A stretch of 64,000 nt of DNA from Lentisphaerae bacterium GWF2_49_21 (GCA_001804805.1 MHBH01000073.1:94539-158538); one strand, 5' to 3'. Shown: positions 3,210-63,961, numbered from the stretch's first letter. Notes: generated by a model not told the origin, from the sequence alone. Program-made: numbers and translations.

Positions 3210-3224
3210 CGGAAGACAGAGGAC

Positions 3225-36419: not shown

Positions 36420-36515
36420 CCACGAAGAATACCCGAAGCCCACGAGGTTAATTTATTTGCCCACGAATCACTCAGATATGAAATACAGATAAGAGATTTT
36501 CGCACAAAGCCACGG
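36420..36515 (+). promoter_or_regulatory. Four spaced ccacg(a/g)(a/g)g direct repeats in the sulfatase upstream region
   Basis: accacgaag, cccacgagg, cccacgaat and gccacggagg, spaced at 20-40 bp between divergent or adjacent genes. Confidence 0.25.
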
Positions 36516-36611
36516 AGGCACAAAGTTAAGATTACACCATTTCCATATCACAGGACGAACATGTTCGCCTGAGCCGATTCATTCAATAATAAATTTTTCA
36601 GAATGAAAAAA

Positions 36612-46233: not shown

Positions 46234-46297
46234 TAAGGAAAATGAGGAAATACTTCAATAGGCCAATTGACAAAGGAGGATGAAAGAATATAATAGC

Positions 46298-46322: not shown

Positions 46323-47450
46323 ATGCCTATGAAGAAAAGCATATATGACATCGCGAAGATGGCTGGCGTTTCCACCGCGACAGTGTCCCGCGTAATGAAC
46401 AACACCGACCAGATCAGCGAAGCCACCAGGACCTCAGTCCTGAAGGCCATCAGGGACGCGAACTATGTGCCCCGCGGAAGCGGCAATGCAAGAACAAGAA
46501 GGAAATCCCCTGACTCCTTTGGAAATTCAGGTGGCACCTTTGAACTGCTTTTCTGCTTCAGCCACGGAGGAGAACGCCTGCATGTCGACGAAAGTAAAAT
46601 CGAAGTGCAGGAATTCAAACACATACCCCCGGAGGAGTTCGTGTCAGGAAGCTCCTTCTACAGGCCGATCAGCGACGGTGCTATCGACGAGGCGAGGAAA
46701 TTCGGATTCAAGACCATAATGCACTGCATCCGGAAGGACGCTCTGAACAGCGCGGAACTCATCCAGTCGCTCTACGACGACAAAATATCAGGTCTTCTTC
46801 TTGCAGGAGAACAGCCTGACGGACTTGCAGAATTCCTGAAGAACTTCAAGCTGCCTGTCATTCTCGTGGACATGATGGCCGGCAACGGCGCCGTGGAAGT
46901 CACCACCGACAATCTGGAAGGCATATCGCAGGCTTTTGAGCATGTCTATTCCCTCGGACACAGGAAGATAGGGTTCATGATTGGAGACGACAGTGTTCCG
47001 GCCTACCGGGAGAGACATCTTTCATTCGTATATAAGATGGCGGAAAAGGGGCTGAAGGTGAAGGAGGAATGGGTATACAGGGGAACGAACCACATAACTG
47101 ATGCAGCCGAATGGGGCATGAAGTTCTTCAAGCGCCGGGATCTGCCCACCGCCTTTCTCTGTACGAACGACTATTGTGCGCTGGGATTGCTCCGGGCGGC
47201 GTTCAAGAATGGAGTCAGGATTCCTGAAGATCTGAGCATTGTCGGATTCGACGACATGGAGACTTCAAGCCTGGTTACCCCTACGCTTACGACTGTGAAT
47301 GTGGCGAAGTCGGAGATTGGACGCTTTTCCGCAAGGGAACTTATCGTCTCATTGAAAAACGGGAGAAGGCCTTCAAATGCCCCGCAATGCCGTGTTCATC
47401 TTAAACCCAGTCTTGTGAAACGTGAATCCACTGCAGCGGTGAAGAAGTAG
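46323..47450 (+). CDS. LacI-family transcriptional regulator
   Basis: N-terminal [24 protein letters not shown], then a periplasmic-binding-protein-like sugar-binding core. Candidate operators lie upstream. Confidence 0.8.
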
Positions 47451-47458: not shown

Positions 47459-48289
47459 ATGGAAAATTTGAAATTTAAAATCGGAAATCGGCAATCCCAC
47501 TTCGCCCGAGGAGCTTCGAGGGACAGGTCGGCAATTGGCAATGCATTCACCCTTATCGAGCTCCTGGTCGTCATTGCGATCATCGCAATTCTCTGTGCGC
47601 TGCTTCTTCCCGCCCTCGGCCGCGCGAAACTGGTCGCACGAAGCATTGCGTGCTTGAGCAACATCAAACAGCTTGGAGTCTGGGGTCTCTCATATGGTGC
47701 CGACTATGATGGATATCTTCCATATAACGGACAGAAATGGCCATGCTCCTTTGAAGGATACGATGATGGCAGTTCCGGCTGGAGCGATACATCCAAATGC
47801 TCCCTGACGATTTCAGGCAAGACCGACGACACTGTCATGCACTGCCCCCAGACCAGCACGGCAATCGGGAAAACTTTGACCGGCGGCAAAGGCTGCCATT
47901 ATAGTCTGAATGCAAGGCTCGGAGCCGTGGGTTCACCAAACGCGGTGACACACTGGCCATATCCGCACATATCAAAACTGACCGAGAAGAAATTCTGGTT
48001 CGCCGATGGAGCCCTGCGTTACCGCCCAAGTGCAAGTCCGAAGGAGATCGCAATACAGTCGGCTATGATGTTCGACTACTGGGACAGCAACCCCCTCTGG
48101 GACGGCATGAAGCTGCCGTGGATGTGGTACAACGAATACTATAAAGTGACCGGGGCCGGAGGCCCTGTCCCGTTTGTTACACATCCTGGAGGTGCGAATT
48201 TTGTCTTTGGAGACGGACATGCGGAGGCGGTAAGATATTTATCCTATTACAATATGTCGGCTGCTGAAAAAAATGCATTCTATAAGTAA
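47459..48289 (+). CDS. DUF1559 (H-X9-DG) protein with a type IV pilin-like N-terminal helix
   Basis: …[30 protein letters not shown]…, and a C-terminal [13 protein letters not shown] (H-X9-DG). Confidence 0.8.
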
Positions 48290-48357: not shown

Positions 48358-49110
48358 ATGAGAAACTGGCTTAATAAAAACTTAGTCAACGGTCTGCTCT
48401 TTTCGTCTTTTATCTATGCAGGAATCTTTTTCACTGCGGAAGCGCAGAACGGGCCGACGCCATATCCGGCGAAGGACTCCGACTGGCCGGGCAAAGGCGT
48501 CATAAGGAAGTTCGGATGGATGGACGACAACCGCAAATGGTTCTGGACGCAGCGCGAGAAGGACCAGGGATCCGTGGTTTTTGTCGGAGATTCGCTGACC
48601 GGCGGCTGGAAAGATCTTGCCAAGGCGTTTCCAGGGCTGAAAGTGGCAAACCGCGGCATAGGAGGGGATGTCAGCCGCGGAGTCCTCTTCCGTTTCCAGG
48701 AGGACGTACTTGATCTCAATCCCAAGGCGATAGTCATCACGGTTGGAACTAATGATCTTACGGCAATGGAAAAGACAGATGACTACGCTTCCAACCTATC
48801 AGATATCCTTTCAATGATTGAAAAGAAAAATCCTGCATTGCCGGTAGTCCTGTGTACGACTCCCCCGAGCGCAAATCCAAAGGCGCCTGTGAAGCTTTCC
48901 GAACGGCAGTCCCTGAACGCAAAGATCCTAAAGTATGCAGAAGGAAGGAAGAATGTGGCGATATGCGATCTTTATGCAGTGATGGCGAATGAGGACGGGA
49001 CGCCTAAGCCTGAATTTTTCGGTGAAGACAAGCTTCATCTCGCAGTACCGGGGTATGAAAAATGGACTGAAATGATAAAACCTGTTTTTGAAAAGCTCGG
49101 GATAAAATAA
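48358..49110 (+). CDS. SGNH/GDSL-family esterase
   Basis: Block I VVFVGDSLTGGW, block II NRGIGGD, and block III TVGTNDL. Signal peptide present. Confidence 0.75.
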   Translation: MRNWLNKNLVNGLLFSSFIYAGIFFTAEAQNGPTPYPAKDSDWPGKGVIRKFGWMDDNRKWFWTQREKDQGSVVFVGDSLTGGWKDLAKAFPGLKVANRGIGGDVSRGVLFRFQEDVLDLNPKAIVITVGTNDLTAMEKTDDYASNLSDILSMIEKKNPALPVVLCTTPPSANPKAPVKLSERQSLNAKILKYAEGRKNVAICDLYAVMANEDGTPKPEFFGEDKLHLAVPGYEKWTEMIKPVFEKLGIK

Positions 49111-49155: not shown

Positions 49156-50601
49156 ATGAAGAACATTGTCGCATTTATAATTTCATCTGCGCTGATTTCT
49201 GTCATTTCCGCCGGCATTTCTGCGGAGGAATCGGCTGTGGCCGATCCTGTTCCTGGAGATCCGGTGGCCAAAAATGAAAAACCGCCTGCAGCAGTTCCAA
49301 AAAATCCTGTTGCGAGATTCAGTATTGTTCCCGCAAGCGGACTTGTGGCGACGAAATTCACTCTGGACGCATCGTCAAGCTATGCTGCCGAAGGGGAAAT
49401 TATAAAATATATGTGGGATGTTGGTGGCGATGGGAAGGACTATGCCGAAGGAAAAGGAACCTCCTGTGAGTTTAGACCTGGGAAGGCCGGAACATATGCC
49501 ATCAACCTTAAAGTTGTGGACGCCAATGGTGCCGAGGCCGTCGCCAGCCGGAAAGTAACTGTCGGCGAAAGCGTGACAGTCGGTGGTGGAACCCTTGCAG
49601 CACCTGCTATCGGGCCGGATCCGAGACTCAGCAATGACGGCGGAGGCGACTGGATCCTGGTCGCGAACTATACTTTCGGAGCAGATAAGAAAGGCACGCT
49701 GGACGATCCTACCATCACTGACCGCAAACAGCTTGTTCAGAATATGCACTGCTATAATCCATTTGGATCGCCGGACTGCAGCGGACAATACTGGGCGAAG
49801 ACATGGATTCCGCCGGAAGCCGTGGAGATAGGGGACAATCCATACAAGATGAACGTATATACGCACGAGGCGCCGAATCATGAGATCGTCGACAATGCTG
49901 TACGTTGCTGGGTACGTAGCCTTGACGGAGAGATGAAGCAGGGGCATTTCAGCTACGGATATCTGCGTACCAAGTTCAAATGGCCGAATCCGACCGTCTC
50001 CGGGCAGGACGTATATGCCGAGGTGAAGTTCCGGATGGTGCCCAATCCGAACCATCCTGACGACATGCGCTTCTTCTGGCTGGCGTTCTGGAGCAACGAC
50101 GTTCCCTATACAGGTGAAATGGACTGGTTTGAAGGTTTCGGATATGACAATGGTCCGGGCAACAACAACTTCAAGGCCGCAGGAAATGCAGTATATCATT
50201 CCGACTGGGCAAAAGGCAAAGGCGCCGTCGGTAAGATAAGTTCCAAGACTTGGACCACGCAGACGCCTCCGGGTTCGGATCTGAAACAGTGGACGATCTT
50301 TGGGGGGCTCCTCTGCAGCGACGGATATTGGTCGACTTATGCAAGCAGTCCTGGAAAGCCCGGCGTACAGTTCGTCCCCAACTTCGGAACCTACGGGAAG
50401 GAGACGTTCAAAGACAACTGGCAGTATTATCTTGAAGGGACGCATGGGAACCAGAAGGTGAAGAACTGCATGCCGCCGGGATTGAGCATGGAATCGAACA
50501 TAGATGCGACATGGTTCCCTTATTCGTATGAATGGCAGTACCTGCGCATCTACATGAGGGACAGGAAGGAAAAAATGAAGGGTGGTGGAGACGTCAAATA
50601 G
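49156..50601 (+). CDS. Secreted PKD-domain protein with a C-terminal GH16-like domain
   Basis: Signal peptide. PKD domain (FSIVPASGLVATKFTLDASSSYAAEG…YMWDVGGDG). GEMDWFEGF fits the GH16 E-x-D-x(x)-E catalytic motif. Confidence 0.65.
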   Translation: MKNIVAFIISSALISVISAGISAEESAVADPVPGDPVAKNEKPPAAVPKNPVARFSIVPASGLVATKFTLDASSSYAAEGEIIKYMWDVGGDGKDYAEGKGTSCEFRPGKAGTYAINLKVVDANGAEAVASRKVTVGESVTVGGGTLAAPAIGPDPRLSNDGGGDWILVANYTFGADKKGTLDDPTITDRKQLVQNMHCYNPFGSPDCSGQYWAKTWIPPEAVEIGDNPYKMNVYTHEAPNHEIVDNAVRCWVRSLDGEMKQGHFSYGYLRTKFKWPNPTVSGQDVYAEVKFRMVPNPNHPDDMRFFWLAFWSNDVPYTGEMDWFEGFGYDNGPGNNNFKAAGNAVYHSDWAKGKGAVGKISSKTWTTQTPPGSDLKQWTIFGGLLCSDGYWSTYASSPGKPGVQFVPNFGTYGKETFKDNWQYYLEGTHGNQKVKNCMPPGLSMESNIDATWFPYSYEWQYLRIYMRDRKEKMKGGGDVK

Positions 50602-50609: not shown

Positions 50610-52898
50610 ATGGAAATAAAAAGAGGGAAAAAGAAAGAAAAAATGAAAAAGAGAGGAACGAAGAAACCGGTTCTGAGCCCGATGGTGGCGCAGGCGGTGG
50701 AGTTCACGGAGACTTACAAGAAGCACATTGACGATCACATCGCGATCCGCGAGGCGGTGTGTTTGAAGACGCAGTATCCTGCGATCCTAAGGGATCTGCG
50801 TCCTGAAGATACTCTTGCCGGTCGTAGGCCGGAAGACATCATCGTCTATTTCGGGACGATATGGTGGCATTGGTACCCTGAATGGCGCAAAGGGATTGAG
50901 TCTGCTGGAAAACAGGGCGGATACTGCGTCAATTTTTCGGCAGCCAAGACCTGCGCGAAGAACGATGCTGAGAGGAAAGTCCTCGAGAAAGTTCTTGATT
51001 TTTGGGAGGAGGAATGCACACAATCTAAGATAAGGAAAATCTGGGACGACGAAGTGAAGAATAGCTTCCTTGGAGGAGCAAGTACAGGATTCTGCATGTC
51101 CATGGATTTCAACCGTCTTCTCAAGCGAGGAGTTCCCGGATTAATCGATGACATAAAGGCAAGAAAAAAGAAGATCAAGAAAATGGGAGGAGATGGAAAA
51201 TTCCTCGACGGGCTCCTCATAATGCTCGATGTCTTCAAGGACACCTGCCACCATTACCGGAAACAGGCCGAAGCATTAGCAGAAAATGCGAAATCCGCAA
51301 AGGACAGGAAGAGGCTTGAGGAGACCGCCAGGATTCTTGAAGCGATAACCATAAGAGCTCCGCAATCTTTCCGCGAAGCTGTCCAACTGCTCTGGCTCTA
51401 TCTCATAATGGGAAGCGGAAAGCATATCGAGCCCGGAAGATTAGACATATTCCTTGGTGATTTTTATGCAAACGACATAGAGAAGGGAGTGATTACCGAG
51501 GAAGAGGCGATGGAAACCATACTCGCGCTTTGGAATGTGATCGATGAGAACGGAGAACCTGCGGTGAGCCGCGTGGTCCTCGGCGGAAAAGGCAGGAGGA
51601 ACGAAAAGAACGCCGACAGGTTCGCAATGGCCGGACTTGAAGCGACAAGGCGATTTAAAAAAGTCAAGCCCCAGCTCACCTTCAGATTCTATGAGGGACA
51701 GGATCCGAAGCTGTTTACCAAGGCTTTGGACGTTGTCGGGGAAAACGGTGTCTTCCCGATGTTCTACAACGACGACACCAACGTTACCGGTGCATCGAAA
51801 AGCCTTGGGGTTTCCCTGGAAGAGGCTGTGCGCTACCATCCGCTCGGATGTGGGGAATACATGCTTGCCTGGTGCAGTCCGAGCCTGCTTGACAGCGCGT
51901 GGAGCGTTCCAAAATCGTTCCTTGCTGCGCTTCACGATGGATTCTACTGTGAAAGACGGAATATTGGTCCGCGCACAGGAACAGTTGAGAAATTTGATTC
52001 TTTCAACAAGCTTTATGAAGCCTACAAGAAACAGATAGATTATGCGATGGACATCTCCGCGCGTATCTACAAGGGGATATGCGATGGACATCCAAAACAG
52101 AACGCTTTCCTCTTCGCGAGTCTCCTGAGCGACGACTGCCTTGAACGCGGCAGGGCCATGTTCGACGGAGGCATCCGGTATCTGGGAGGATGCGAGATGG
52201 GGCATGGATACACTAATTCGTCAGATTCACTTACTGCCATTAAAAAAATCGTATATCAGGAAAAGAAGATTTCCATTTCTGAACTCGTAAAGATCCTCGA
52301 TAATAATTTTAAAGGGCGGGAAGATGTCAGGAAGATGCTCCTTGAGGCTCCGAAGTTCGGCAATGATGACAAGGATGCCGACGGAATGATGACTGACATG
52401 TGGAAATACATCCACAAATCTGCGAAACTCGCAGGAAAAAAAGAGGGTCTTGACTTCCTCGTTGTCAGCAGCGTAAATCCAGGCGGATATGGGATGGGCA
52501 AGGACTGTGGAGCAACTGCCGACGGGCGCAAAAAAGGTGAACCGTTTGCAATAGGAATGGCTCCGACGGCCGGATTCGACAAGAGAGGACTGACGGCGAT
52601 GTTCAATTCCATATCGAAAGTGGATCCTGCACACGGCGGGGCTACTACGAACATCAAGCTGTCTCGGGAATTCTTCACCAATGAACGAGCCAAAATGGAA
52701 ATGCTCTTCAAGGTCTATTTCAAGAAGGGTGGAATGCAGGCGAATGTAACCGTTGTCAACAAGAATGATCTCCAGGCCGCGCTGAAGGAACCGGAGAAGT
52801 ATTCGCATGTGATGGTCCGCCTCGGCGGATGGTCGGCACGATTCATCGATCTGGAGCCGATGATACAGGAGGAGATCTTAAGAAGGACGCTGTATTGA
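50610..52898 (+). CDS. Glycyl radical enzyme (PFL2/dehydratase-like clade) with an atypical radical-site motif
   Basis: C-terminus VMVRLGGWSARFIDLEPMIQEEILRRTLY matches RVSGYSAxFxxL…E(I/V)IxR, but with G-W instead of G-Y. Active-site loop YHPLGCGEY. Mid-protein GRLD…FY..D…G.IT.EEA.E motifs are typical of glycyl radical enzymes. I chose the ATG at 50610; the track ORF's 5' extension overlaps the upstream gene. Confidence 0.75.
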   Translation: MEIKRGKKKEKMKKRGTKKPVLSPMVAQAVEFTETYKKHIDDHIAIREAVCLKTQYPAILRDLRPEDTLAGRRPEDIIVYFGTIWWHWYPEWRKGIESAGKQGGYCVNFSAAKTCAKNDAERKVLEKVLDFWEEECTQSKIRKIWDDEVKNSFLGGASTGFCMSMDFNRLLKRGVPGLIDDIKARKKKIKKMGGDGKFLDGLLIMLDVFKDTCHHYRKQAEALAENAKSAKDRKRLEETARILEAITIRAPQSFREAVQLLWLYLIMGSGKHIEPGRLDIFLGDFYANDIEKGVITEEEAMETILALWNVIDENGEPAVSRVVLGGKGRRNEKNADRFAMAGLEATRRFKKVKPQLTFRFYEGQDPKLFTKALDVVGENGVFPMFYNDDTNVTGASKSLGVSLEEAVRYHPLGCGEYMLAWCSPSLLDSAWSVPKSFLAALHDGFYCERRNIGPRTGTVEKFDSFNKLYEAYKKQIDYAMDISARIYKGICDGHPKQNAFLFASLLSDDCLERGRAMFDGGIRYLGGCEMGHGYTNSSDSLTAIKKIVYQEKKISISELVKILDNNFKGREDVRKMLLEAPKFGNDDKDADGMMTDMWKYIHKSAKLAGKKEGLDFLVVSSVNPGGYGMGKDCGATADGRKKGEPFAIGMAPTAGFDKRGLTAMFNSISKVDPAHGGATTNIKLSREFFTNERAKMEMLFKVYFKKGGMQANVTVVNKNDLQAALKEPEKYSHVMVRLGGWSARFIDLEPMIQEEILRRTLY

Positions 52899-52905
52899 GA
52901 ATGTA

Positions 52906-52926
52906 GAACAGGCATCTTGCCTGTTC
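52906..52926 (+). terminator. Hairpin after the glycyl radical enzyme (gaacaggca tct tgcctgttc), first of three related 'caggc' hairpins
   Basis: Perfect 9-bp stem starting 8 nt after the stop. Related hairpins at 53001-53017 and 53072-53090. Confidence 0.4.
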
Positions 52927-53098
52927 ATTGAATTGAATATCCAATATCCAACAAGGAATTTCGAATGTCCAAGTGGAGATATTTTAAACAAGAGAAGACC
53001 ACAGGCGGGACGCCTGTTCCACATTGAAAGAATAAAAGAAAGTGGTACAGCCGTCTCGGCTGTAATTAGATCACAGGCAAGATGCCTGTGTTACATTT

Positions 53099-54007
53099 AT
53101 GGGAAAGCAAGGATTAATATTCGCAATCGAAAGATGCTCCCTGCACGATGGGCCGGGGCTGCGGACGACTGTCTTTTTGAAGGGCTGTCCGCTGCACTGC
53201 CATTGGTGTCACAATCCCGAATCACAGTCGTCATATCCTGAGCTCTATTTTCTCCGCGAGAAGTGCACCCTCTGCGGATCATGCGTCAAAGCGTGTCCGA
53301 ACAAATGCCACAGCCTGAGCGTGAGCAACCACGATATAAACCGTGTCCTATGCGCCAGATGCGGATGCTGTGTTTCAGCGTGTTCAAACTCTGCGCTTGA
53401 GATAAAAGGAAATCCCATGGGAGTTGAGGATGTTCTTGCGGAAGTCGAAAAGGACCATGACTTCTATGTTGAATCCGGAGGAGGCATGACGCTTTCCGGC
53501 GGTGAGCCTATGATGCAGTATGAATTCGCCGCAGAACTTCTTAAGCAGTCGAAGAAGAAAGGATTCCACAACTGCATTGAGACCAGCGGATTTGCACCTA
53601 AGGAAAGATATCTGAAGATCAGGAAGAACGTTGATATTTTCCTCTTTGACTTCAAGGAAAGCGATCCAGAGAGGCATCTGAAATACACCGGGGTGGATAA
53701 CAAGCAGATCCTGGAGAATCTTTTCGAACTGGACAGGAAAGGTTCGAAGATAATCCTGCGCTGTCCGATCATACCGGGATTGAACGACAGGAAATCTCAC
53801 CTTGAAGAAATTGCTAAACTCGCAGGGAAACTCAAGAATATAATCGAGATCAATGTCATGCCGTATCATCCGATGGGAAAATCGAAGAGCGGAAGAATCG
53901 GCAAGAAGCAACCGCATGACAGCGACAGTTTCACGGAGAATGAGAAAGTCGAGAAATGGATCAAGTTCATTGGAAGGAGAACTACTATTCCAGTGAAAAA
54001 GGGATAA
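53099..54007 (+). CDS. Glycyl-radical-enzyme activating protein (radical SAM with ferredoxin-like insert)
   Basis: GCPLHCHWCHNPES (Cx3Cx2C), two extra Cys clusters (CTLCGSCVKACP and CARCGCCVSACS), and GGMTLSGGEP. Confidence 0.85.
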   Translation: MGKQGLIFAIERCSLHDGPGLRTTVFLKGCPLHCHWCHNPESQSSYPELYFLREKCTLCGSCVKACPNKCHSLSVSNHDINRVLCARCGCCVSACSNSALEIKGNPMGVEDVLAEVEKDHDFYVESGGGMTLSGGEPMMQYEFAAELLKQSKKKGFHNCIETSGFAPKERYLKIRKNVDIFLFDFKESDPERHLKYTGVDNKQILENLFELDRKGSKIILRCPIIPGLNDRKSHLEEIAKLAGKLKNIIEINVMPYHPMGKSKSGRIGKKQPHDSDSFTENEKVEKWIKFIGRRTTIPVKKG

Positions 54008-54092
54008 ATAGAGGAGCGCCACCATCTTGGTGGCATAATAATAATTGCCGGCAGGATGCCGGCGCTCCATTTATACAAAAAGGGGAGAAGAT

Positions 54093-55175
54093 ATGAAAAG
54101 CGCGATGATTTTCGGATTATGCCTGGCGGCTTCGGTGTTTGCGGCGGCGGCTGATGCGCCCAAGCCATTCGACCACGGCGATGATGCTGACGTAAATAAA
54201 TTGAAACAGGCAGAGAAAAGCGATGTCGTCAATCCCATGCCTGACAGGCCGCTGGCCAAATGCGAGCTGAAGGACAAGATATACCACGGCGTCCTGATAT
54301 GGACAGATAAGAAGGATGGCTTCACGAAGATATACGACCAATATGTGAAGGTTGCCGGGAAGAAGCCGTCGATGATCGGCACATTCGACTGTATCTGGTC
54401 GAACAGCGTGAAACAGCCGGACGATTCATTTGAACAAAGACTTAAGATCATCGACGAGATTCCGAATGTCATTCCATTCATGAAGGTCTATACGGGCGAC
54501 TGGAAGCCGGGGTGTCCTTTCCTAAGCGCCGATGAGATCCTCGCCGGAAAACACGACCAGTATTTCAAGAACATGGCAGGATACTGCAAAAAATATGCGA
54601 AACCGATGATGGTCAGCTTCAACCATGAGATGAATGGTGATTGGTTCTTCTATTCGGAGCTATACAAGAAGGAGAAGACAGACTGGACTGCCGAGAAATA
54701 TATAAAGATATGGCGCAAGATACATGGAATATTCAAGGATGAAGGGGTGACGAATGTCGCATTCGTATGGTGTCCGCAGATGACTGGCCGTCCCTACAAG
54801 GAACTCAACGCCCAGAACAGTTTCAAGGCGTATTATCCGGGTGACGAATATGTCGACTGGATCGGACCGAGCTTCTACAATGACGTCAACCACATGTACA
54901 TGGACAATCTTGTAAAGACTTATCCGAGCAAGCCAATCGTTCTCGCCGAGTGGGGCACGGAACCCAACCGCGGACAGTGGTATGTGCCAAAGCCTTATCC
55001 GGGTGATGCAAAGCACATGGAAATGACATTGAACCTGTTCCCGAAGAAATATCCGAACATCAAGGCGATGACTTATTTCTACTGGGGGAAGGATGTCAAT
55101 ATCGAGAGGCTTCCGGAGCAGGTCGAGATCTACCAGAAGGGAATTTCAGGGGAGAAATTCCTGAGCAACGAATAA
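54093..55175 (+). CDS. Glycoside hydrolase family 26-like (mannanase/lichenase clade)
   Basis: Signal peptide MKSAMIFGLCLAASVFAAAA after the RBS aaaggggag. FNHEMNGDWFFY matches the GH26 HEMNGxWFWWG block. Confidence 0.6.
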   Translation: MKSAMIFGLCLAASVFAAAADAPKPFDHGDDADVNKLKQAEKSDVVNPMPDRPLAKCELKDKIYHGVLIWTDKKDGFTKIYDQYVKVAGKKPSMIGTFDCIWSNSVKQPDDSFEQRLKIIDEIPNVIPFMKVYTGDWKPGCPFLSADEILAGKHDQYFKNMAGYCKKYAKPMMVSFNHEMNGDWFFYSELYKKEKTDWTAEKYIKIWRKIHGIFKDEGVTNVAFVWCPQMTGRPYKELNAQNSFKAYYPGDEYVDWIGPSFYNDVNHMYMDNLVKTYPSKPIVLAEWGTEPNRGQWYVPKPYPGDAKHMEMTLNLFPKKYPNIKAMTYFYWGKDVNIERLPEQVEIYQKGISGEKFLSNE

Positions 55176-55312
55176 TGTTTGTAGTAGGCGTATTTATACG
55201 CCGTTAAGTAGGTACGTGCTTCAGCATGTACCATCTTAATCAGTAAGAAGGGGACAGGCTAAAGCCCGTCCCTACCTTATAGAACGCGCAATAAATTGCG
55301 CTACTACCAACG
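55176..55312 (+). repeat. Structured repeat element, copy 2; starts 1 nt after the GH26 stop codon
   Basis: TIRs gtttgtagtag / ctactacCaac. Hairpins ggcgtat-tt-atacgcc, ggtacgtgc-ttca-gcatgtacc, gggacaggc-taaa-gcccgtccc and gcgcaat-aa-attgcgc. Confidence 0.75.
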
Positions 55313-55334
55313 GAATAATAACAAAGGAGAGTTC

Positions 55335-56312
55335 ATGAAAAAAGCTATTATTGTCGCACTGGCCGCAGTGGCTCTGATGTCAGGCGCCCAGGAAAAGAAG
55401 GAGGCGAACATGTCAGATGCCGAGATACTCAAATGGAAGGATGGGAAGAAGGCCGTGTTCATGCTGGAATTCGACGACAGCTGCGTGACTCATGTGACCA
55501 ATGCAATTCCTGAACTTAAGAAGAGGGGAATGGTCGGAACGTTCTACATCAATGCCGGTAACGGTCCGTTCAAGAACAAACAGAACGACTGGGAGAAGGA
55601 AATTCCGAAGATGGGGATGGAATATGGCAATCACACCTTCACGCACAAGGGCGCGCCGACGCTTGAGGAGGTGGACAAGGACATCGCGCTTGCCAACGAC
55701 GAAATCAACAAGTGTTTCCCCGACCGCAAGACTCCACGCCTTATCTCCTTCGGTCAGCCCGGAGGAGTTCCATGGAAGATCACCAAGGAGGAATTTGAAA
55801 AGCTGCTGGCAAAATACAATCTCGTCAACAGGCCTTCCTTCTTCGGATATCCCTTCCATGCGAAGACGAAGGAGGATGTGCTGAAGCTGGTGGACAATGC
55901 GATTGCCAAGGGAGAGATGGGGCATCATGACTTCCATGGGGTAGGAGGAGACTGGCTCGTCACCCCGATGGACATCTTCACTGCGCTCCTCGACAAGCTT
56001 GAGGCGAACAAGGATCTTGTCTGGGTGACTGATCCGGTTTCATATCACAAATATCTTACTGAACGCAAGGGAGCTGAACTGAAAGTTGTCCAGAAGGATG
56101 CCGCCCAAATCAAGCTCCAGCTCACATGTAAGACGGACGCGGCTCTTTATGATCTTCCGCTGACACTTCACACGAAAGTTCCAGCTGACTGGAAGGAATG
56201 TTCGGTGGAGCAGGGGAAATCCAAGACAAGCGCAAAGGTTGAAGCTGGAGCAATTCGCTACTCGGCGGAACCTGTCAGCGGTGAAATTGTGATAAAGCCT
56301 GCTAAAAAATAA
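55335..56312 (+). CDS. Polysaccharide deacetylase (carbohydrate esterase family 4, NodB domain)
   Basis: Signal peptide MKKAIIVALAAVALMSGA after aaaggagag. NodB motifs EFDDS and YGNHTFTH. The track's 5' extension runs into the repeat element. Confidence 0.65.
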   Translation: MKKAIIVALAAVALMSGAQEKKEANMSDAEILKWKDGKKAVFMLEFDDSCVTHVTNAIPELKKRGMVGTFYINAGNGPFKNKQNDWEKEIPKMGMEYGNHTFTHKGAPTLEEVDKDIALANDEINKCFPDRKTPRLISFGQPGGVPWKITKEEFEKLLAKYNLVNRPSFFGYPFHAKTKEDVLKLVDNAIAKGEMGHHDFHGVGGDWLVTPMDIFTALLDKLEANKDLVWVTDPVSYHKYLTERKGAELKVVQKDAAQIKLQLTCKTDAALYDLPLTLHTKVPADWKECSVEQGKSKTSAKVEAGAIRYSAEPVSGEIVIKPAKK

Positions 56313-56483: not shown

Positions 56484-57212
56484 ATGAAAAACTCGAAACT
56501 TGCAATCCGAAGTTCGAAAGACGGGAGAGGGAAAAGAGGTTATTTTACGCTCATTGAGTTGCTCGTGGTCATCGCCATCATCGCGATTCTGGCGGCATTG
56601 TTGCTTCCGGCGCTGAACAATGCCAAGTTGACGGCAAAAAGCGTAGTGTGTCTGAGCAATCTCAAACAAAATGTTTTAGCTGCCTACTCATATGGTTCCG
56701 AAAATGACATGTATGTGCCAATTATAGGAAAGCTCGCAGGGGGATGGAGAGATTATTCGTATTTGTTGACGCAAGAAAAATATATGGATAATAGCAATGC
56801 CCGAGCTTGTCCTCGCGGCCAACCCTACAAAAGCTGTTATGGCTATGGAACACAAAGTGGAACAGCCAGTTCTGGCCCCAGATTTGAAGCCCCTTATCCG
56901 GCTTTCAACATATCATATGGGGGAGGAGACTATATGAAATTTCGAGCACTAAATCAAATATCTCAGCCAAATAATTATACATATATTTGTGATGTAAGCA
57001 ATTGGGAAGCCAAACAATACTTCGACGTTACACCAACAAACGCCTGGGCTTCTTTGGGGCTGCGTCATTTTCGGAAGGCCAACGCTGCTCTATGGGATGG
57101 TCACGCAGAAGGGCGCACAGGGAAAAACTGGTACAACTCTGGATTCACCTCAGGATTTATTGTCCTCAGCGAGGCCATTGCCTCCAGCAGTGCTGCTCCG
57201 GTTAATTTTTAA
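56484..57212 (+). CDS. DUF1559 (H-X9-DG) protein with a type IV pilin-like N-terminus
   Basis: …[31 protein letters not shown]…, and a C-terminal [13 protein letters not shown]. Confidence 0.8.
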
Positions 57213-57258: not shown

Positions 57259-58020
57259 GTGAAAGGTCTTGTTATGAAAATCAAAATCCCTGACAGTCTG
57301 CTGAAAAAATACTATGTTGATTGGGGTTGTAGATGGGGACTCACCCGCGAGCGTCTTATGCAAGTGATTTATTACATGTATGCAGACAGTCCCAACATCC
57401 ATATTGGCAAGCGGGTCTATATGAGAAGTCTTCAGACAATAGGGAGTGTCCATCCCGATTCATCTCTGTCCATTGGAGACGAATCCGTCTTCTGGGGGAA
57501 ATCGAATATTTGCGCAAGTTATGGCGGGCAAATCAGCATTGGAAGCCGCTCTTTGATCGGAGATAACAACAACACCTTGTGTCGCAACCGAGTTTCCATC
57601 GGCAATTATGTGCTGACTGCTCAAAACCTGAGCATTCGTGATTATGAAGATCATCCGATTCCTCCACGCGAACGGAAGGCGCAGGTCAGCTACTGTATAC
57701 GTCAATACAATCCATTTCATGATCCTTCCAACATAGGGCTTTCGCCGGAAGAAATAGAGTATTTCGACACCTACTGGAACGATAAAAGATATTTTGTTTC
57801 TGCACCGGTTGAAATAGGCGACAACTGCTGGATCGGGCACGACGTTACCATTATGAAAGGTGTTAACATCAGCGAAAACTCCATTATCGCCGCCCGTTCC
57901 GTGGTGACCAAATCCGTACCTCCCAACTGTATCGCCGGCGGTGTGCCAGCTCGGGTGCTAAGGGAAAATCTCGACCAAGATGATCCGGAGGAATTCTGGA
58001 AAAACAGGCCGCAAACATGA
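57259..58020 (+). CDS. Hexapeptide-repeat (LbH) acetyltransferase
   Basis: C-terminal left-handed beta-helix repeats CWIGHDVTIMKGVNISENSIIAARSVVTKSV…GGVPARVL. Confidence 0.7.
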   Translation: MKGLVMKIKIPDSLLKKYYVDWGCRWGLTRERLMQVIYYMYADSPNIHIGKRVYMRSLQTIGSVHPDSSLSIGDESVFWGKSNICASYGGQISIGSRSLIGDNNNTLCRNRVSIGNYVLTAQNLSIRDYEDHPIPPRERKAQVSYCIRQYNPFHDPSNIGLSPEEIEYFDTYWNDKRYFVSAPVEIGDNCWIGHDVTIMKGVNISENSIIAARSVVTKSVPPNCIAGGVPARVLRENLDQDDPEEFWKNRPQT

Positions 58021-58088: not shown

Positions 58089-60878
58089 ATGAAAATCAAA
58101 GTTCTTATGGCAATCTTTGCTGTGGCGCTATTCCTTGTTATGGACGCCGTATCCGCCGCCGACGTTTCCCTGAACGACAATGGCATAGCTGTTACGGTCA
58201 AGGGAATGGGCGGATTCAACCTTGGTTATCCGGTACTTCAGCCTGGTGATTTGAAACCTTTGCAGAAGAAGGTTTCCGGCAAACAGGCAGATGTCACCTA
58301 CGCCAAAGACATAAAAGTCCACCTTGAAGTGGTTGATGGCGGAAAAGTCAACATGAAATTCAGCAATGCCTCTGCGGTCAAGAACTTCAGGCTCGATATC
58401 GGATTTGGTGCGCAGTTAGCGGATGGCGGCACCTGGACCATCGGCAAAGGCCAGCCGCAAACCTTCCCGGTCGAGAAACCGGCGAAACCTCACCTCTATC
58501 AGGGCAACTCGGGAGGCTTTACATTGATCGATGCGGCCGGACACATATTGTCTGTCACAGGTTTTCCCGACTACGCCTATCAGGAACTGACCGATCTTCG
58601 CGAATGGGGCAACAAGGCATACGCTTGGAAAGTGACTGTCCCCTACAATCCAGGATGGGAAGTTCACAGCATAGTAGTCAGCGAGAAACCACATGGCGCC
58701 GCTGCCACTGCTGCTCCAACGACCGTGAAAGTTCAGGTCGACCGCTTTGGACAGACCACACGCAAGGACTTTCCGGGCAAAGTGAAGGACGAGGCTGACC
58801 TGAAGGCTGATGTAGCAAACGAAGCGGCATACTGGGCCAGCTATAAGCCGATACCAGTTGACAAATGGGGAGGACTTCCCGGCAGCAAGGAAAAGCTCGG
58901 ATTGAATTCGACTGGATTCTTCCGGGTTGAAAAGAAGAATGATCGCTGGCTGCTCATCAATCCTGACGGCAACGTCACGTTCCACCTTGGAATCTGCGTT
59001 TTCAGCTATAATCCGGGTGATGAGGCGACATACATCAAGGACCGCCGCGACATCTACGAGTGGCTTCCTCCGCTAGATGGAGAATTCGCCGACGCCTGGC
59101 ACCCAGACAAGTGGTGGCATGATCAGGTTTTCTCATTCTATTCTGCAAACGTCATCCGCAAATATGGCAAGGAGACAACCAAGGACCAGCAGATAGCGCG
59201 TCTGATTGACCGCGTGCGCGCAGTGGGATTTAATGCCATAGGCGCGTTCTCAGGTTCATCCCGGGCATTCGTTGACAAGCATATCCCGCGCATGTCCGGT
59301 GTCGGGTTCAATCCAGAACTGCCCGGCATCCGCGGAGTAGCTGATCCATTTGATGAGGAAACGCGTAAGAAGACAGAGGAAATCTGGGCGGAAAAATTGC
59401 CCAAACAGGCGGACGATCCTCTGATCATCGGATTCTTCTTTGCAAACGAGCAGGGATTCGAGGATATTCCGCGGGCCGTTCCGCAGTTGCCAGGGAAACA
59501 TGCGGCAAAGAAAAAACTTGTCGAAATGCTGCAGAAGAAGTATCCGACCATCGCCGAATTCAACACCGCCTGGAACCTGCAGGTTGCGGATTTCGCAGCT
59601 CTTGCCGACAAGGGACTGCCAGTGTCAACCAAGGCCGCCTACGCCGACATGCAGGAATATACCGAACTGTTCCTCGACACATACTTTAAATTCCTCACCG
59701 AGACTTTCCGCAAATATGACAAGAACCATCTGATGGTGTCCAACCGCTGGCAGCCAGGCACCGCAAACAACGAGGCCCTCTGCCGCATCGCCGGCAAGTA
59801 TATGGACGTCATCAGCATCAACTATTATACCTGGGGTGTAGACAAGAACTTCATCGAGCGACTCTATAAATGGACTGGTGGTAAACCGCAGATGTGGAGT
59901 GAGTTCTACTACACCAGCGGTATCGAGAGCAACGTTGCGGCTGGCGGCTTGGACATGAAGTCGCAGCAGGCTCGTGGTGAGGCTTACCGCCAATACGTCG
60001 AGCAGGCTGCTGCCCTCGGGTTCGTGGTTGGTGTCGAATGGTTCACATTGATTGACCAGGCGGTGACCGGACGCTGGTTCTCAAAGCTTAACGGCGAACG
60101 CGCCAACAGCGGACTATTCAACACCTGCGACCGTCCATACGACACCTGTCTGCGTGAGATGGCGAAGTCGCATGAGGTCTTATACGACGTTCTGTTGAAC
60201 GGGAAGAAACCCTTTACCCTTGAAGACCCTCGCTTTGCAGGTGGTGCAGGCAAGACCCGCAAGCAGGTGCAGGCTGGCAGTGTGCCTGCCGGTAGCATTA
60301 AGATCGACGGAATGGCCGATGGATGGCCGGGCCGCCCCCCGGAGCGTGTCACAAACGATCGTCTGGTCGAGGGCAAGGACGGCAAGGGGCTTGAAGGATC
60401 CTTCAAGGTAGCCTGGGACACTGACAATCTCTATCTGCTAATCAATGTCACCGATCCGACGCCTCTCAATAACACTGCTCAGGGTGATAAACTGTGGAAC
60501 GGCGACGGAGTTGAGCTGTTCATCGGCAGCGAAAAGCTGGACCAGCCCGGAACATTGCTGTTCAGCGATCGTCAGGTGCTGCTTGCAGGCCGGACGGATA
60601 TCAAACCGGGAAGCACTCATATTGTGAACGCCGCAAAACAGCCTGAGATCCGCCTGATCAACGTGCCGTCGGTCGACGGCAGCGGTTATACCATGGAGGC
60701 GGCTATTCCGTGGGCCGCGCTCGATGTGAAGCCAGTCGAAGGGATGGATCTTATCTTTGACATGGCGATAGATGACGCTCCACAAGGTGGCAGCCGTACC
60801 CGCCAGATCATGTGGAATGGCGGCGAAAAGAACAGTAGTGATCGCTCATATTGGGGCCGCCTGAAACTGGTGCGATAA
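58089..60878 (+). CDS. Secreted large glycoside hydrolase-like protein with a C-terminal CBM9/DOMON-like carbohydrate-binding domain
   Basis: Signal peptide. Central TIM-barrel-like region with an NEQ acid/base-like motif (FFANEQGFED) and ISINYYTWG. C-terminal …IKIDGMADGWPG…FKVAWDTDNLYLLINVTD…GDGVELFIG is CBM9-like. Confidence 0.55.
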   Translation: MKIKVLMAIFAVALFLVMDAVSAADVSLNDNGIAVTVKGMGGFNLGYPVLQPGDLKPLQKKVSGKQADVTYAKDIKVHLEVVDGGKVNMKFSNASAVKNFRLDIGFGAQLADGGTWTIGKGQPQTFPVEKPAKPHLYQGNSGGFTLIDAAGHILSVTGFPDYAYQELTDLREWGNKAYAWKVTVPYNPGWEVHSIVVSEKPHGAAATAAPTTVKVQVDRFGQTTRKDFPGKVKDEADLKADVANEAAYWASYKPIPVDKWGGLPGSKEKLGLNSTGFFRVEKKNDRWLLINPDGNVTFHLGICVFSYNPGDEATYIKDRRDIYEWLPPLDGEFADAWHPDKWWHDQVFSFYSANVIRKYGKETTKDQQIARLIDRVRAVGFNAIGAFSGSSRAFVDKHIPRMSGVGFNPELPGIRGVADPFDEETRKKTEEIWAEKLPKQADDPLIIGFFFANEQGFEDIPRAVPQLPGKHAAKKKLVEMLQKKYPTIAEFNTAWNLQVADFAALADKGLPVSTKAAYADMQEYTELFLDTYFKFLTETFRKYDKNHLMVSNRWQPGTANNEALCRIAGKYMDVISINYYTWGVDKNFIERLYKWTGGKPQMWSEFYYTSGIESNVAAGGLDMKSQQARGEAYRQYVEQAAALGFVVGVEWFTLIDQAVTGRWFSKLNGERANSGLFNTCDRPYDTCLREMAKSHEVLYDVLLNGKKPFTLEDPRFAGGAGKTRKQVQAGSVPAGSIKIDGMADGWPGRPPERVTNDRLVEGKDGKGLEGSFKVAWDTDNLYLLINVTDPTPLNNTAQGDKLWNGDGVELFIGSEKLDQPGTLLFSDRQVLLAGRTDIKPGSTHIVNAAKQPEIRLINVPSVDGSGYTMEAAIPWAALDVKPVEGMDLIFDMAIDDAPQGGSRTRQIMWNGGEKNSSDRSYWGRLKLVR

Positions 60879-61764: not shown

Positions 61765-62742
61765 ATGATGAGGCAAAAAGAAGTTATCCATGTAGTATTT
61801 GCGGCGATATTGCTTGTGTCACTCTCTGTGATCTGCAGCGGTGAGGAACCAGCTACAGCCACGACGTCAGTCATTAAAGACAGTCCCTACGTCCCTGCTG
61901 GCTACAAGAAGGTGTTCGGGGACGAATTTGACGGCGCAAGCCTTTCACTTACCAACTGGTGGACCCGTTACATCTACAACAACGGCATGCTCGACACACT
62001 CAACGACGAGAAACAGCTCTTCCGTGAAAACAACAACCATGTCATGACCGGTACGACCCTGCAGCTGACAGCCCGCAAGGTGTCGAACTCTAATCCGCGC
62101 TTCCAATATGAATCGGGAATGATCCGGTCGAAGATGACATTCAAGTATGGCTATTACGAGTCACGGCTCAAGGTGCCGGGCGGTCTCGGTGTCTGGCCCG
62201 CGTTCTGGCTAAACAGCGATTCCGACGCTAATGGAAAAACCTCCTGGCCGCCGGAGATAGATATACTTGAATTTGTCAATAATGGCAAGGATGACCGGCC
62301 CGACATGGTGCACATGACTGCGCAGGTGAAGAATAAGAAAGGTGAACCGAATCCCTGGGGAGGAGAGGAACTGTTCCGGGATCCGGACTTCAAGAAGCGC
62401 AACTATTATGCGCCATTCAAGTTCCCTGATGACTTCCATGTTTTCGGCCTGCTCTGGGATACGGATGATACCGTGACCTGGTTCGTGGACGGGAAGAAGC
62501 TTTTCACTGTATCCTACAAGTGGGTTTATGCGAACGGCAAGGATGCACCAAACGCCCATGTCCTGCTCAACCTGTCGATAGGAGGACAATGGGCTGGCCG
62601 GTACGGCGTCGACGACAAGGCTTTCCCACAGGCGCTCGATGTCGACTACGTCCGCGTCTACCAGAAGCCCGATCAAATCAAGACTGGCCAGAGCACCATC
62701 GGAAAAGATTTGCTTAAGGATCCGAACGAGGAGAAAAAATGA
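61765..62742 (+). CDS. Glycoside hydrolase family 16 (laminarinase/beta-glucanase-like)
   Basis: Signal peptide. Canonical GH16 catalytic motif EIDILE (E-x-D-x-x-E) in the context WPAFWL…WPPEIDILEF. Confidence 0.75.
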   Translation: MMRQKEVIHVVFAAILLVSLSVICSGEEPATATTSVIKDSPYVPAGYKKVFGDEFDGASLSLTNWWTRYIYNNGMLDTLNDEKQLFRENNNHVMTGTTLQLTARKVSNSNPRFQYESGMIRSKMTFKYGYYESRLKVPGGLGVWPAFWLNSDSDANGKTSWPPEIDILEFVNNGKDDRPDMVHMTAQVKNKKGEPNPWGGEELFRDPDFKKRNYYAPFKFPDDFHVFGLLWDTDDTVTWFVDGKKLFTVSYKWVYANGKDAPNAHVLLNLSIGGQWAGRYGVDDKAFPQALDVDYVRVYQKPDQIKTGQSTIGKDLLKDPNEEKK

Positions 62743-62884: not shown

Positions 62885-63961
62885 ATGACAGGCAAAGAAA
62901 GAACATTGCTGGCGATCAATTTTGAACCGACAGACCGGATTCCGGTCGTAGGCGGATTTGTGCGGCATCCGCAGTTTCTGGCGGAGATGGCAGGTGTTTC
63001 CGTTGAAGAATTCTGGACTGATCCAAGGAAGACGGCCATCCGGGCCTTCCATTCTCTGGGAGTTGATGTCATCATCGGCCTGATCCTGCCAAATCGGGAT
63101 TCCTCCAGCGGGGCACAACACGACATACACAAGCAGACGCGTTTTGATTCTCCGGAAGCAATGCTTGACGACATCGCCAAATTACCGAGCCTGTCTGACC
63201 TGCATAAGAATTTTGTTTTCCAGAAGCATTATGACGATTATCTTAAGCGGTATAAGGATGGACAGACGGAAATTGGAGAAGAGATCCTCTGGATTCCAAA
63301 CACCTTCGACTGTGTCGCCCAGTTCCAGAACGAAGGCTATTTCGGCGCTGAAAATTACTACATGGCATTGTCATTGTTCCCCGAGGCAATGAACAGGTTT
63401 TTTGAACACTCAGGAGAGACCGCATTCCTGCGTAACACCGCAGTCGCCAAGGCGATTGTCGAGAACGATTTGCCGAGGGTGATGTGGCTCGGACAGGATT
63501 CCTGTGACAACCGCGGACCGTATATCGCCCCAGAGATCATGAACGATATCTACATTCGGCATGTCAAGCGCTCGCTCGAGCCTCTCAAGGATATAGGTGT
63601 AAAGATCATCTGGCACTCGGACGGCAATATCATGCCTATCGTCCCATATCTGCTTGATGCAGGCATTGACGGATTCCAAGGCATGCAGGAGACCATCGAG
63701 ACAAAGGTCGACGTTGAAAAGCTGGGAGGAGTGACCACCCGTGCCGGCAAGAAACCCATTATTGTGGGCAGTCTCTCCAGTATCACCATAATGCCCTTCG
63801 GCACACCGGATGATGTACGTGCAGACGTTGTCCGCTGTCAGGAACTGGCCCGGAAACGCGATGGTGGATGGCTGTTGAATTTTTCCTCGTCAATTGGTCC
63901 GGAAGTTCCGGCAGCGAACATACAGGCTTTTTTCGACCAGGCCTCCAGAAAGCCGAAATGA
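62885..63961 (+). CDS. Uroporphyrinogen-decarboxylase-like (URO-D/MtaA-like) family protein
   Basis: N-terminus MTGKERTLLAINFEPTDRIPVVGG…, as in URO-D-like proteins. (beta/alpha)8 pattern. Confidence 0.5.
   Translation: MTGKERTLLAINFEPTDRIPVVGGFVRHPQFLAEMAGVSVEEFWTDPRKTAIRAFHSLGVDVIIGLILPNRDSSSGAQHDIHKQTRFDSPEAMLDDIAKLPSLSDLHKNFVFQKHYDDYLKRYKDGQTEIGEEILWIPNTFDCVAQFQNEGYFGAENYYMALSLFPEAMNRFFEHSGETAFLRNTAVAKAIVENDLPRVMWLGQDSCDNRGPYIAPEIMNDIYIRHVKRSLEPLKDIGVKIIWHSDGNIMPIVPYLLDAGIDGFQGMQETIETKVDVEKLGGVTTRAGKKPIIVGSLSSITIMPFGTPDDVRADVVRCQELARKRDGGWLLNFSSSIGPEVPAANIQAFFDQASRKPK

Follow-up and report, generated by a model that had tools for sequence, protein, structure and literature searches.

What reaction is catalysed by a glycyl radical enzyme (GRE) whose gene is placed among genes for glycan degradation? 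The question is raised by a 64,000-nucleotide stretch of DNA from Lentisphaerae bacterium GWF2_49_21 (GCA_001804805.1, MHBH01000073.1:94539-158538), hereafter called the window, in which a GRE gene (50643-52898, + strand) is followed by the gene of its activase (53099-54007, + strand) within an operon rich in carbohydrate-active enzymes (CAZymes). Sequence comparison places the GRE outside every characterised GRE family, in a separate and widespread clade. We assign a probability of about 55% to the reading that it is a radical C-O 1,2-eliminase or isomerase of the CxE type, which would act on a cytoplasmic product of beta-glucan or beta-mannoside breakdown at the level of a mono- or disaccharide. 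The point of interest is that a large cross-phylum clade of GREs is present in glycan-utilisation loci without an assigned substrate. The reactions of GREs are anaerobic and chemically demanding, and each newly assigned clade has brought a new pathway to light, as was the case for choline, hydroxyproline, sulfonates, and anhydro-sugars.

The GRE gene is an uninterrupted open reading frame (ORF) on the + strand with a stop at position 52898. It encodes 751 amino acids from the ATG at 50643, or 762 from an ATG at 50610. The product matches the Pfam families PFL-like (PF02901, E-value 1e-103) and Gly_radical (PF01228, E-value 1e-20). The Cys loop PLGCGEY contains the putative thiyl-radical cysteine as well as the CxE motif's glutamate (Cys403-Gly-Glu405, numbered from ATG 50643; 51849-51857, + strand), and its GCGE core is conserved in 119 of 120 homologues. 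In the predicted structure, Cys403 is positioned within a hairpin formed by residues 398-408. The glycyl radical fingerprint VRLGGWSARFIDLEPMIQEEILRRT (52815-52889, + strand) includes the radical-bearing Gly729, the codon of which is at 52827-52829. Cys403 and Glu405 align with Cys433 and Glu435 of glycerol dehydratase (GDH) and are in register with the GC[IV]E loops found in YbiW and PflD from E. coli, and all three residues, including Gly729, line up with the catalytic residues of these enzymes. The middle of the protein holds the stretch GRLD...FY.ND...G.ITEEEA. An earlier interpretation of the locus, the sequence-only reading, had recognised a GRE in the region of 50610 from its GCxE loop, its GRLD/FY..D..G.IT.EEA motifs, and its C-terminal radical domain; all of these are present in an intact gene, and the alignment of the active-site residues reveals no loss of the catalytic Cys or the radical Gly.

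The radical loop RLGGWSARF was previously regarded as a departure from a near-universal RVSGYSA. The motif itself is present, but the accepted GRE fingerprint, RVxG[FWY]x6-8[FL]x4Qx2[IV]x2R (2026 Drennan-lab review, PMC13450708; also the 2024 AARE paper), already permits tryptophan at the aromatic position and any residue at position x. The window protein (R-L-G-G-W-SARFID-L-EPMI-Q-EE-I-LR-R) matches the fingerprint with a single departure, the replacement of Val by Leu at position 2, where many members of the clade have Val. Among the 120 best homologues, the loop reads GG-W in 71, GG-F in 46, and GG-Y and SG-Y in one each. A neighbour-joining tree of the homologues, rooted on E. coli YbiW and PflD, contains one subclade in which all 45 sequences are GG-F. 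In the other lineage, the two earliest-branching sequences have Tyr, and the remainder are GG-W except for two GG-F. Judged by this distribution, the aromatic residue of the radical loop is a conservative character of the clade and not an anomaly of the window protein. The GG-W loop is common, and the clade in which it is common is uncharacterised.

The activase is a GRE-activating radical S-adenosylmethionine (SAM) enzyme of 302 amino acids, which starts 200 nt downstream of the GRE gene and scores 337.8 bits against the model TIGR02494 (cutoff 174.35). It contains the radical SAM motif CX3CX2C (C30/C34/C37; 53186-53209, + strand) and two ferredoxin-like CX2CX2CX3C motifs, formed by C56/59/62/66 (53264-53299, + strand) and C85/88/91/95 (53351-53383, + strand). 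The activase and its two ferredoxin-like Cys clusters had been noticed before, but their description as extra does not hold: a ferredoxin-like domain with eight further cysteines is the rule, being present in the "vast majority" of GRE activases and missing only in those of pyruvate formate-lyase (PFL) and class III ribonucleotide reductase. The GRE and the activase very probably form a working pair of an uncharacterised clade.

The structure of the GRE was predicted using AlphaFold2 from a 27-sequence alignment of the family, with a mean predicted local distance difference test score (pLDDT) of 91.3 and a predicted TM-score of 0.91; disorder is limited to residues 1-8. In Foldseek comparisons, the model superposes on all solved PFL2-type GREs, about 50 GRE chains, with TM-scores of 0.83-0.87. 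The best solved relative is the glycerol dehydratase of Clostridium butyricum (phmmer E-value 2e-82; TM-score 0.86 to 1R8W), with which the window protein shares 25% of residues in the structural alignment. The identity to all other solved GREs is 20-25%, and that to E. coli YbiW and PflD is 25-26%, versus 38-91% within its own family.

The divergence was judged by the cutoffs of curated hidden Markov models, the Foldseek identities, and the tree rooted on YbiW and PflD; the GREs with chains in the PDB enter this comparison through the Foldseek identities and not through the tree. The window protein scores below the cutoff of every curated family model. The score is 309.6 bits for TIGR01774, the PFL2/GDH subfamily (cutoff 678.2), 267 bits for HypD (1100), 247 and 245 bits for HpfG and HpsG (1000), 209 bits for the PflD-type model NF007437 (1109), 207 bits for CutC (1050), 198 and 185 bits for the indoleacetate and HPA decarboxylases (1000-1150), and 78.6 bits for the PFL model TIGR01255 (994). 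The scores against the NCBIfam subfamily and enzyme-specific models thus amount to about 20-45% of the cutoffs, and to 8% for PFL. Because of these scores, the difference between the 25-26% identity to known enzymes and the 38-91% identity within the family, and the presence of relatives in the genomes of 472 species, the window GRE is assigned to a separate clade, in agreement with its earlier description as divergent.

A pattern scan that covered each GTDB species with one genome identified relatives of the GRE in the genomes of at least 472 species, and a scan of metagenomes added at least 351 further stretches. The carriers belong to Lentisphaerota, where the window is nearest to Victivallis, Kiritimatiellae (Pontiella sulfatireligans), Verrucomicrobiota, Planctomycetota, Sumerlaeota, Bacillota (Anaerotaenia torta, Paenibacillus, Ruminiclostridium cellobioparum, Clostridium lacusfryxellense), Ignavibacteria (Melioribacter, Rosettibacter), many Bacteroidales, and Flavobacterium. 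Cultured carriers include A. torta, R. cellobioparum, Flavobacterium nackdongense, P. sulfatireligans, Rosettibacter primus, and C. lacusfryxellense. The source annotations of the homologues go no further than "pyruvate formate lyase family". Look-ups of the exact sequences of the window GRE and activase returned no record.

All characterised GREs that eliminate C-O, C-N, or C-S substituents, as well as the three GRE isomerases, keep the CxE motif, and in the CxE enzymes the cysteine adjoins the carbon that loses hydrogen while the glutamate is hydrogen-bonded to a hydroxyl group of the substrate (PMC13450708). Because CxE is retained in the window GRE, the enzyme is placed in the eliminase and isomerase group. 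The Cys loop has a single cysteine (G-C-G-E), versus the two adjacent ones that are required for pyruvate formate-lyase (PMC13450708). In the proposed mechanism, the activase would hold a single [4Fe-4S] cluster that binds SAM, and its ferredoxin-like domain would accommodate up to two others. The activase would cleave S-adenosylmethionine reductively and remove a hydrogen from Gly729, located within the RLGGWSARF loop, generating a stable protein radical. In each turnover, the radical would move from Gly729 to Cys403 of the GCGE loop, and the thiyl radical would abstract hydrogen from a substrate carbon that bears a hydroxyl group. The proton of this hydroxyl would be accepted by Glu405, and the ketyl radical would expel the vicinal C-O substituent, OH or OR. 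The product radical would finally regain a hydrogen from Cys403.

The intactness of the genes, the fold, the catalytic motifs, the pairing with an activase, the distribution of the clade, and its neighbourhoods are shown by the data. The reaction type in this reading is derived from the CxE motif, and the substrate class from the genomic context only. A cytoplasmic substrate at the level of a sugar is proposed because the context is sugar-regulated and rich in CAZymes. The GRE and activase genes belong to a 16-kb co-directional cluster (46.3-62.7 kb), the first gene of which encodes a LacI-family sugar-responsive regulator (46323-47450, + strand; Pfam LacI and Peripla_BP_1/3). The cluster includes a GDSL/SGNH esterase (48358-49110, + strand; Lipase_GDSL_2, E-value 2e-22), a secreted glycanase similar to glycoside hydrolase (GH) family 26 (54045-55175, + strand; E-value 3e-10), the probable start of which is the ATG at 54093 followed by a signal peptide, a polysaccharide deacetylase of carbohydrate esterase family 4 (CE4; 55296-56312, + strand; Polysacc_deac_1, E-value 1.4e-11), a 929-residue protein with a C-terminal carbohydrate-binding module (CBM) of family 9 (58089-60878, + strand; CBM9_1, E-value 1.6e-24), and a secreted laminarinase-like GH16 enzyme (61765-62742, + strand). 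The top solved relatives of the GH16 enzyme are beta-1,3(4)-glucanases and laminarinases (E-value 3e-26). Those of the GH26-like enzyme are the "Endoglucanase H" chain of C. thermocellum (E-value 1.7e-10), which we take to be the lichenase domain of that protein, and, behind it, mannanases. The placement of the GRE among GH16, GH26, and CE4 genes, asserted in the sequence-only reading, is therefore accurate; all three are downstream of it on the same strand. The gene order of the operon recurs in two further Victivallales genomes.

The neighbourhoods of the clade were compared in 165 non-redundant related loci, in which ORFs were called, the neighbours were clustered, and the clusters were labelled with Pfam families. 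The GG-F subclade contributes 111 of these loci and the GG-W subclade, to which the window protein belongs, 48. An activase is encoded near the GRE in 130 of the 165 loci. The other recurrent neighbours are AraC (42 loci) and LacI (26) regulators, GH130 enzymes (32), which are often immediately upstream of the GRE, GFO/IDH/MocA dehydrogenases (23), SSF symporters (19), GH92 (17), PhyH (16), sulfatases (15), and aldo-keto reductases and IU-nucleoside-hydrolase-like proteins (14 each). Within the 48 GG-W loci, the partners are LacI regulators (15), GH16 (9), ABC sugar permeases (7), GH130 (7), and two-component AraC systems (5). One representative GH130 neighbour lacks a signal peptide and matches the beta-1,4-mannoside phosphorylases UhgbMP, TM1225, and RaMP2 with an E-value of 1e-120. 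In Bacteroidales, the gene order SSF-GH130-GRE-activase is a recurrent operon. A GH94 phosphorylase flanks the GRE in Anaerotaenia and in one metagenomic relative, and is within 10 kb of it in a Lentisphaerae genome.

Several points weigh against the assignment of a sugar-level C-O eliminase or isomerase. CxE marks a class of chemistry and not a substrate. GH130, SSF, GH92, and GFO/IDH/MocA neighbours are concentrated in the GG-F sister subclade, the members of which share only about 40% of their residues with the window protein; GH130 is a neighbour in only 7 of the 48 GG-W loci, and none is encoded within 10 kb of the GRE in the window. The neighbourhoods are heterogeneous, and some, such as that of a Paenibacillaceae locus, contain no CAZyme at all. 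No characterised member of the clade was found in the full-text literature, which leaves most subscription journals uncovered, or in the June 2026 review (PMC13450708). The position of GDH His164, the acid that protonates the leaving hydroxyl (PMC13450708), is occupied by a cysteine in the window protein and by C, A, S, or I across the family, with a different surrounding region in the GG-F members; a simple dehydratase would thus be left without an identified acid. Furthermore, Arg310 (51570-51572, + strand), a candidate substrate-binding residue, could indicate an anionic rather than a neutral substrate. Arg310 is part of the family-invariant signature of the 27-sequence alignment, together with GCGE, GxGRRNExNADRF, YNDD, and ATADGR, and is missing from YbiW, PflD, and GDH. 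It is predicted to belong to a barrel strand (residues 310-314), two residues past the equivalent of GDH Tyr339 in the alignment, which would position it in the active site.

The loss of the GDH acid and the invariance of Arg310 would be compatible with a better leaving group or with an anionic substrate. One rival reading is a radical lyase for glycosides or ethers, which would abstract hydrogen beside a substituted carbon of a disaccharide, an O-methyl sugar, a sugar-1-phosphate, or a sulfated sugar and expel OR, phosphate, or sulfate, a radical route in place of hydrolysis or phosphorolysis. The missing histidine suits a leaving group that needs no protonation, the invariant arginine could hold an anionic group, sulfatases are neighbours in 15 of the 165 loci, and the GRE repeatedly adjoins cytoplasmic beta-glycoside phosphorylases (GH130 in 32 loci, and GH94) as well as SSF and ABC importers that would bring in oligosaccharides. 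Nevertheless, we consider this activity unlikely. The argument is purely inferential, phosphorylases cleave their own substrates unaided, the neighbouring sulfatases have signal peptides and so do not share a compartment with the GRE, and we know of no GRE that is a glycoside or ether lyase. Another rival reading is a counterpart of the B12-independent glycerol or 1,2-propanediol dehydratases, which would use a small diol or polyol from glycan fermentation, such as glycerol, 1,2-propanediol derived from deoxy-sugars, or mannitol. GDH is the top match in both sequence and fold, followed by propanediol dehydratase, CxE is present, and the window protein has Asp at the position of GDH residue 447. 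That position is D, N, T, or S across the family, however, the equivalents of GDH Ser282 and Tyr339 are different or variable, and the replacement of His164, the 25% identity, and a TIGR01774 score of 310 against a cutoff of 678 all make a diol dehydratase rather improbable. Nor are there genes for shell proteins, aldehyde dehydrogenase, 1,3-propanediol dehydrogenase, or the use of fucose or rhamnose in the operon or among the recurrent neighbours.

1,5-Anhydrofructose reductases fall in families of the GFO/IDH/MocA or aldo-keto reductase type, and both types recur as neighbours in the GG-F subclade; in addition, the relative at locus L094 has a class II aldolase gene divergently adjacent to it. 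These neighbours, and the existence of two GREs with the same CxE logic, YbiW and PflD, which alone among the characterised members act on sugars, would fit an isomerase that opens the ring of a 1,5-anhydro-hexitol or its phosphate in a route of the "anhydroglycolysis" type. We regard such an isomerase as quite improbable for the window protein, which is 25-26% identical to YbiW and PflD, scores 209 bits on NF007437 against a cutoff of 1109, and has lost the histidine that YbiW, PflD, and GDH share at the GDH-164 position. The window operon lacks the phosphotransferase system (PTS) and Fsa-type aldolase genes that accompany ybiW and pflD, and loci with GH16, GH26, and GH130 have no known link to a source of anhydro-hexitol. 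The cleavage of a C-S or C-N bond, as in IslA and HpsG or in CutC, in a sulfo-sugar-derived or amino compound is highly improbable, even though the HpsG and HpfG models match with E-values of 1e-72 to 1e-73 and CutC with 7e-61, and the window encodes a sulfatase and a TauE sulfite-exporter homologue. Relative to the curated cutoffs, the scores reach only about 20-25%, the genes for the sulfatase and TauE belong to other transcription units at distances of 8-21 kb, and genes for sulfoquinovose, taurine, or choline are not among the recurrent neighbours. The Arg/Gln/Arg sulfonate triad of the C-S lyases was not identified in the window protein, which was not directly aligned to it.

The substrates proposed in the sequence-only reading fare differently from its gene assignments. 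Sulfo-sugars and 3,6-anhydrogalactose derivatives, which would go with sulfatases and with GH16 enzymes of the agarase or carrageenase type, find no support in an operon with a laminarinase-like GH16 and a GH26-like enzyme nearest to a lichenase. The annotated parts contain no microcompartment, aldehyde dehydrogenase, or PTS and aldolase genes, which would point to a pathway for a diol or an anhydro-sugar-phosphate. Shell proteins of bacterial microcompartments were absent from the annotated operon ORFs, the other annotated ORFs of the window (most of at least 200 amino acids), and the recurrent neighbours. The nearby sulfatases are a single gene (36612-38126), which is encoded on the other strand at a distance of about 8 kb and outside the operon; it was rejected as an operon member because of its strand and its location beyond an alpha-2-macroglobulin gene. 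The statement that the substrate cannot be inferred from the sequence remains correct.

In a bolder reading, which we hold to be less likely than not, the clade would perform an undescribed radical step in anaerobic glycan catabolism, in which a GRE would act directly on a non-phosphorylated sugar or glycoside derived from a polysaccharide. An example would be cleavage of a C-O bond, or a rearrangement, in a beta-linked disaccharide or a hexose that is handled alongside GH130 or GH94 phosphorylases. If the substrate is a glycan-derived sugar, a radical reaction would join the anaerobic degradation of polysaccharides in guts, sediments, and digesters, and the unannotated "pyruvate formate-lyase" gene seen in many sugar-regulated CAZyme loci would be accounted for. 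On the bolder reading, the enzyme would also be the first GRE integrated into loci for polysaccharide utilisation, in Bacteroidota, Bacillota, Lentisphaerota, Verrucomicrobiota, Planctomycetota, and Ignavibacteria. A more specific idea was dropped, according to which abstraction of the C1 hydrogen leads to a 2-deoxy-aldonolactone that is opened by a neighbouring SMP-30/gluconolactonase; this neighbour has a signal peptide and occurs in the GG-F subclade only.

The operons of some Bacteroidales members of the GG-F subclade (L060-L064, L068, L073, L076, L077, L085, and L087) have a further feature, the recurrence of secreted proteins of the type IX secretion system. These are a phosphoesterase of the calcineurin-like type in fusion with CBM35/CBM6 and a protein with DUF5010-CBM35, and periplasmic sulfatases recur as well. 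Their presence suggests that these operons target a glycan decorated with phosphodiesters or sulfates. The locus L092, which encodes a 57% identical homologue, is unlike all the others: the GRE and activase genes are split around a LacI gene, and the surroundings include a RuBisCO-like protein, an FGGY kinase, an amidohydrolase, and a GH29 fucosidase.

The N-terminus of the GRE depends on the choice of the start codon. The sequence-only reading started the protein at ATG 50610 (MEIKRGKKKEKMKKRGTKK) and described a Lys-rich N-terminus. In the closest homologue, P0001, which is 91% identical and originates from a metagenome-assembled genome of an uncultured Victivallis (locus L010), the protein begins with MKKSGTKKPVLSP, and its MKKSGTKK corresponds to the window ATG 50643. 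The position equivalent to ATG 50610 is an ACG in another frame in the L010 DNA, and the purine-rich stretch there is not translated. Because of this out-of-frame ACG and the called start that matches 50643, the segment ATGGAAATAAAAAGAGGGAAAAAGAAAGAAAAA (50610-50642, + strand) is most likely a purine-rich 5' untranslated leader with a ribosome-binding site, and the Lys-rich MEIKRGKKKEK is most likely a start-codon artefact of translating this A/G-rich leader. The purine-rich composition is kept between the window leader and positions 9956-9988 of L010, directly 5' of the GRE start; in the window, the leader happens to form an open frame with an ATG, which gives rise to a spurious extension rich in Lys, Glu, and Arg. 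An 88% identical homologue starts three codons upstream of the equivalent of 50643, again without the Lys-rich stretch, and the extension was found in none of the 120 homologues inspected. The loci L010 and L016 were compared with the window, and ATG 50610 was rejected as the likely start on this basis. Some room for its use is left by the sequence AGGGA, located 5 nt upstream of it, and the extension is not conserved regardless. The start of the mechanically called ORF at 50532 was also rejected, as it overlaps the end of the upstream gene (50601) and has no support from homologues.

The spacer between the GRE and activase genes (52899-53098, + strand) is structured. It contains four hairpin units of the form ACAGSC-N5-GSCTGT, at positions 52908, 53001, 53047, and 53073, which are the only four matches to this pattern in the 64-kb window, where none is expected by chance. 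Copies one and four are complementary to each other along 25 nt, which would allow the spacer as a whole to adopt a single closed fold that ends at the start of the activase gene. The predicted energy of the RNA fold is -77.3 kcal/mol (z = -7.1). The sequence of the hairpins is not conserved in the close relatives L010 and L016, and the whole window contains no match to any Rfam family. The spacer may set the ratio of GRE to activase expression or stabilise the GRE transcript.

The remaining genes of the operon are arranged around those described above. Upstream of the LacI gene, a sigma-70-like TTGACA-16-TATAAT (46267-46294, + strand), identified by its 12/12 consensus match alone, is the probable operon promoter. 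The LacI gene is followed by a gene for a protein with a prepilin-type N-terminal methylation motif and an HX9DG-CTERM domain (47459-48289, + strand), which has the same position in L005 and L010. A second prepilin-type protein, recognised by domain matches, is encoded at 56484-57212 (+ strand), so that two such proteins are present inside a glycan operon. A PKD-domain protein (49156-50601, + strand; PKD_4) precedes the GRE. A LacA/Maa-like hexapeptide-repeat sugar O-acetyltransferase (57259-58020, + strand; domain matches) precedes the CBM9 protein, which is conserved in L005 and L010, and an ORF of 222 amino acids without a Pfam match is located between the CBM9 and GH16 genes on the + strand. 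At the end of the operon, near the window edge, the GH16 gene is followed by that of a URO-D-family protein (62885-63961); the URO-D fold includes methyltransferases of the methylcobamide type.

Elsewhere in the window, a group of minus-strand genes (33598-38126) encodes a GH32/GH43-like enzyme, a GFO/IDH/MocA oxidoreductase, and the sulfatase, and is a separate transcription unit. The GFO/IDH/MocA family is a recurrent GRE neighbour in the GG-F subclade, and in the window it is encoded in this other unit. The group is separated from the GRE operon by the gene of a 1688-residue bacterial alpha-2-macroglobulin homologue (38436-43502, - strand) with MG2, bait-region, TED, and receptor-binding domains and a weak internal match to DUF1559. 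A cluster at 256-6985 encodes a DegT/DnrJ/EryC1 sugar aminotransferase, an unannotated ORF of 613 amino acids, a B12-binding radical SAM protein (4302-5699), and a PMT_2-type glycosyltransferase (5696-6985); it resembles a cluster for the modification of surface glycans and is unrelated to the GRE. The housekeeping half of the window contains elements of a mobile or defence-like kind, namely a DDE transposase (21877-23358, - strand) beside the gene of the DNA polymerase III alpha subunit, and two AAA_14 ATPases (14471-15838 and 17215-18426), of which one has DUF4143 and the other an Rrf2-like region. The remainder of the window, where annotated, is housekeeping.

Among known systems, HypD, HplG, CutC, IslA, and HpsG share with the window GRE the fold, the CxE motif, and an activase with auxiliary clusters. 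However, they are 20-24% identical to it, and its scores on their models are 18-25% of the cutoffs. Their substrates are amino acids, choline, and sulfonates, and their gene contexts are unrelated to that of the window. The 1,2-propanediol dehydratase of Roseburia inulinivorans (5I2A; also 9RCO), a CxE eliminase, is the second-best match in sequence and fold, but with an identity of 23-25%. Propanediol dehydratase is encoded with microcompartment genes and genes for fucose or rhamnose utilisation, none of which are among the annotated genes here. The glycerol dehydratase of C. butyricum (DhaB1, 1R8W/1R9D) has the same two-gene architecture, a GCxE loop, an RVxG-aromatic Gly loop, and an activase with a ferredoxin-like insert. 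In contrast to it, the window clade has an added N-terminal beta-hairpin region (model residues 68-96), and the window GRE is part of a CAZyme operon without the dha/1,3-propanediol context. YbiW and PflD, the isomerases of 1,5-anhydroglucitol-6-phosphate and 1,5-anhydromannitol-6-phosphate (8ID7/8ID0), are the sole characterised GREs that act on sugars, and they cleave a C-O bond beside a carbinol radical (PMC13450708). They resemble the window protein in the CxE motif, in length, and in fold (TM-scores 0.85-0.86). Their Gly loop reads AGY, whereas that of the window protein is GGW, and the ybiW and pflD genes are accompanied by PTS and Fsa-aldolase genes, whereas the window clade is associated with glycoside hydrolases, phosphorylases, and LacI or AraC regulators.

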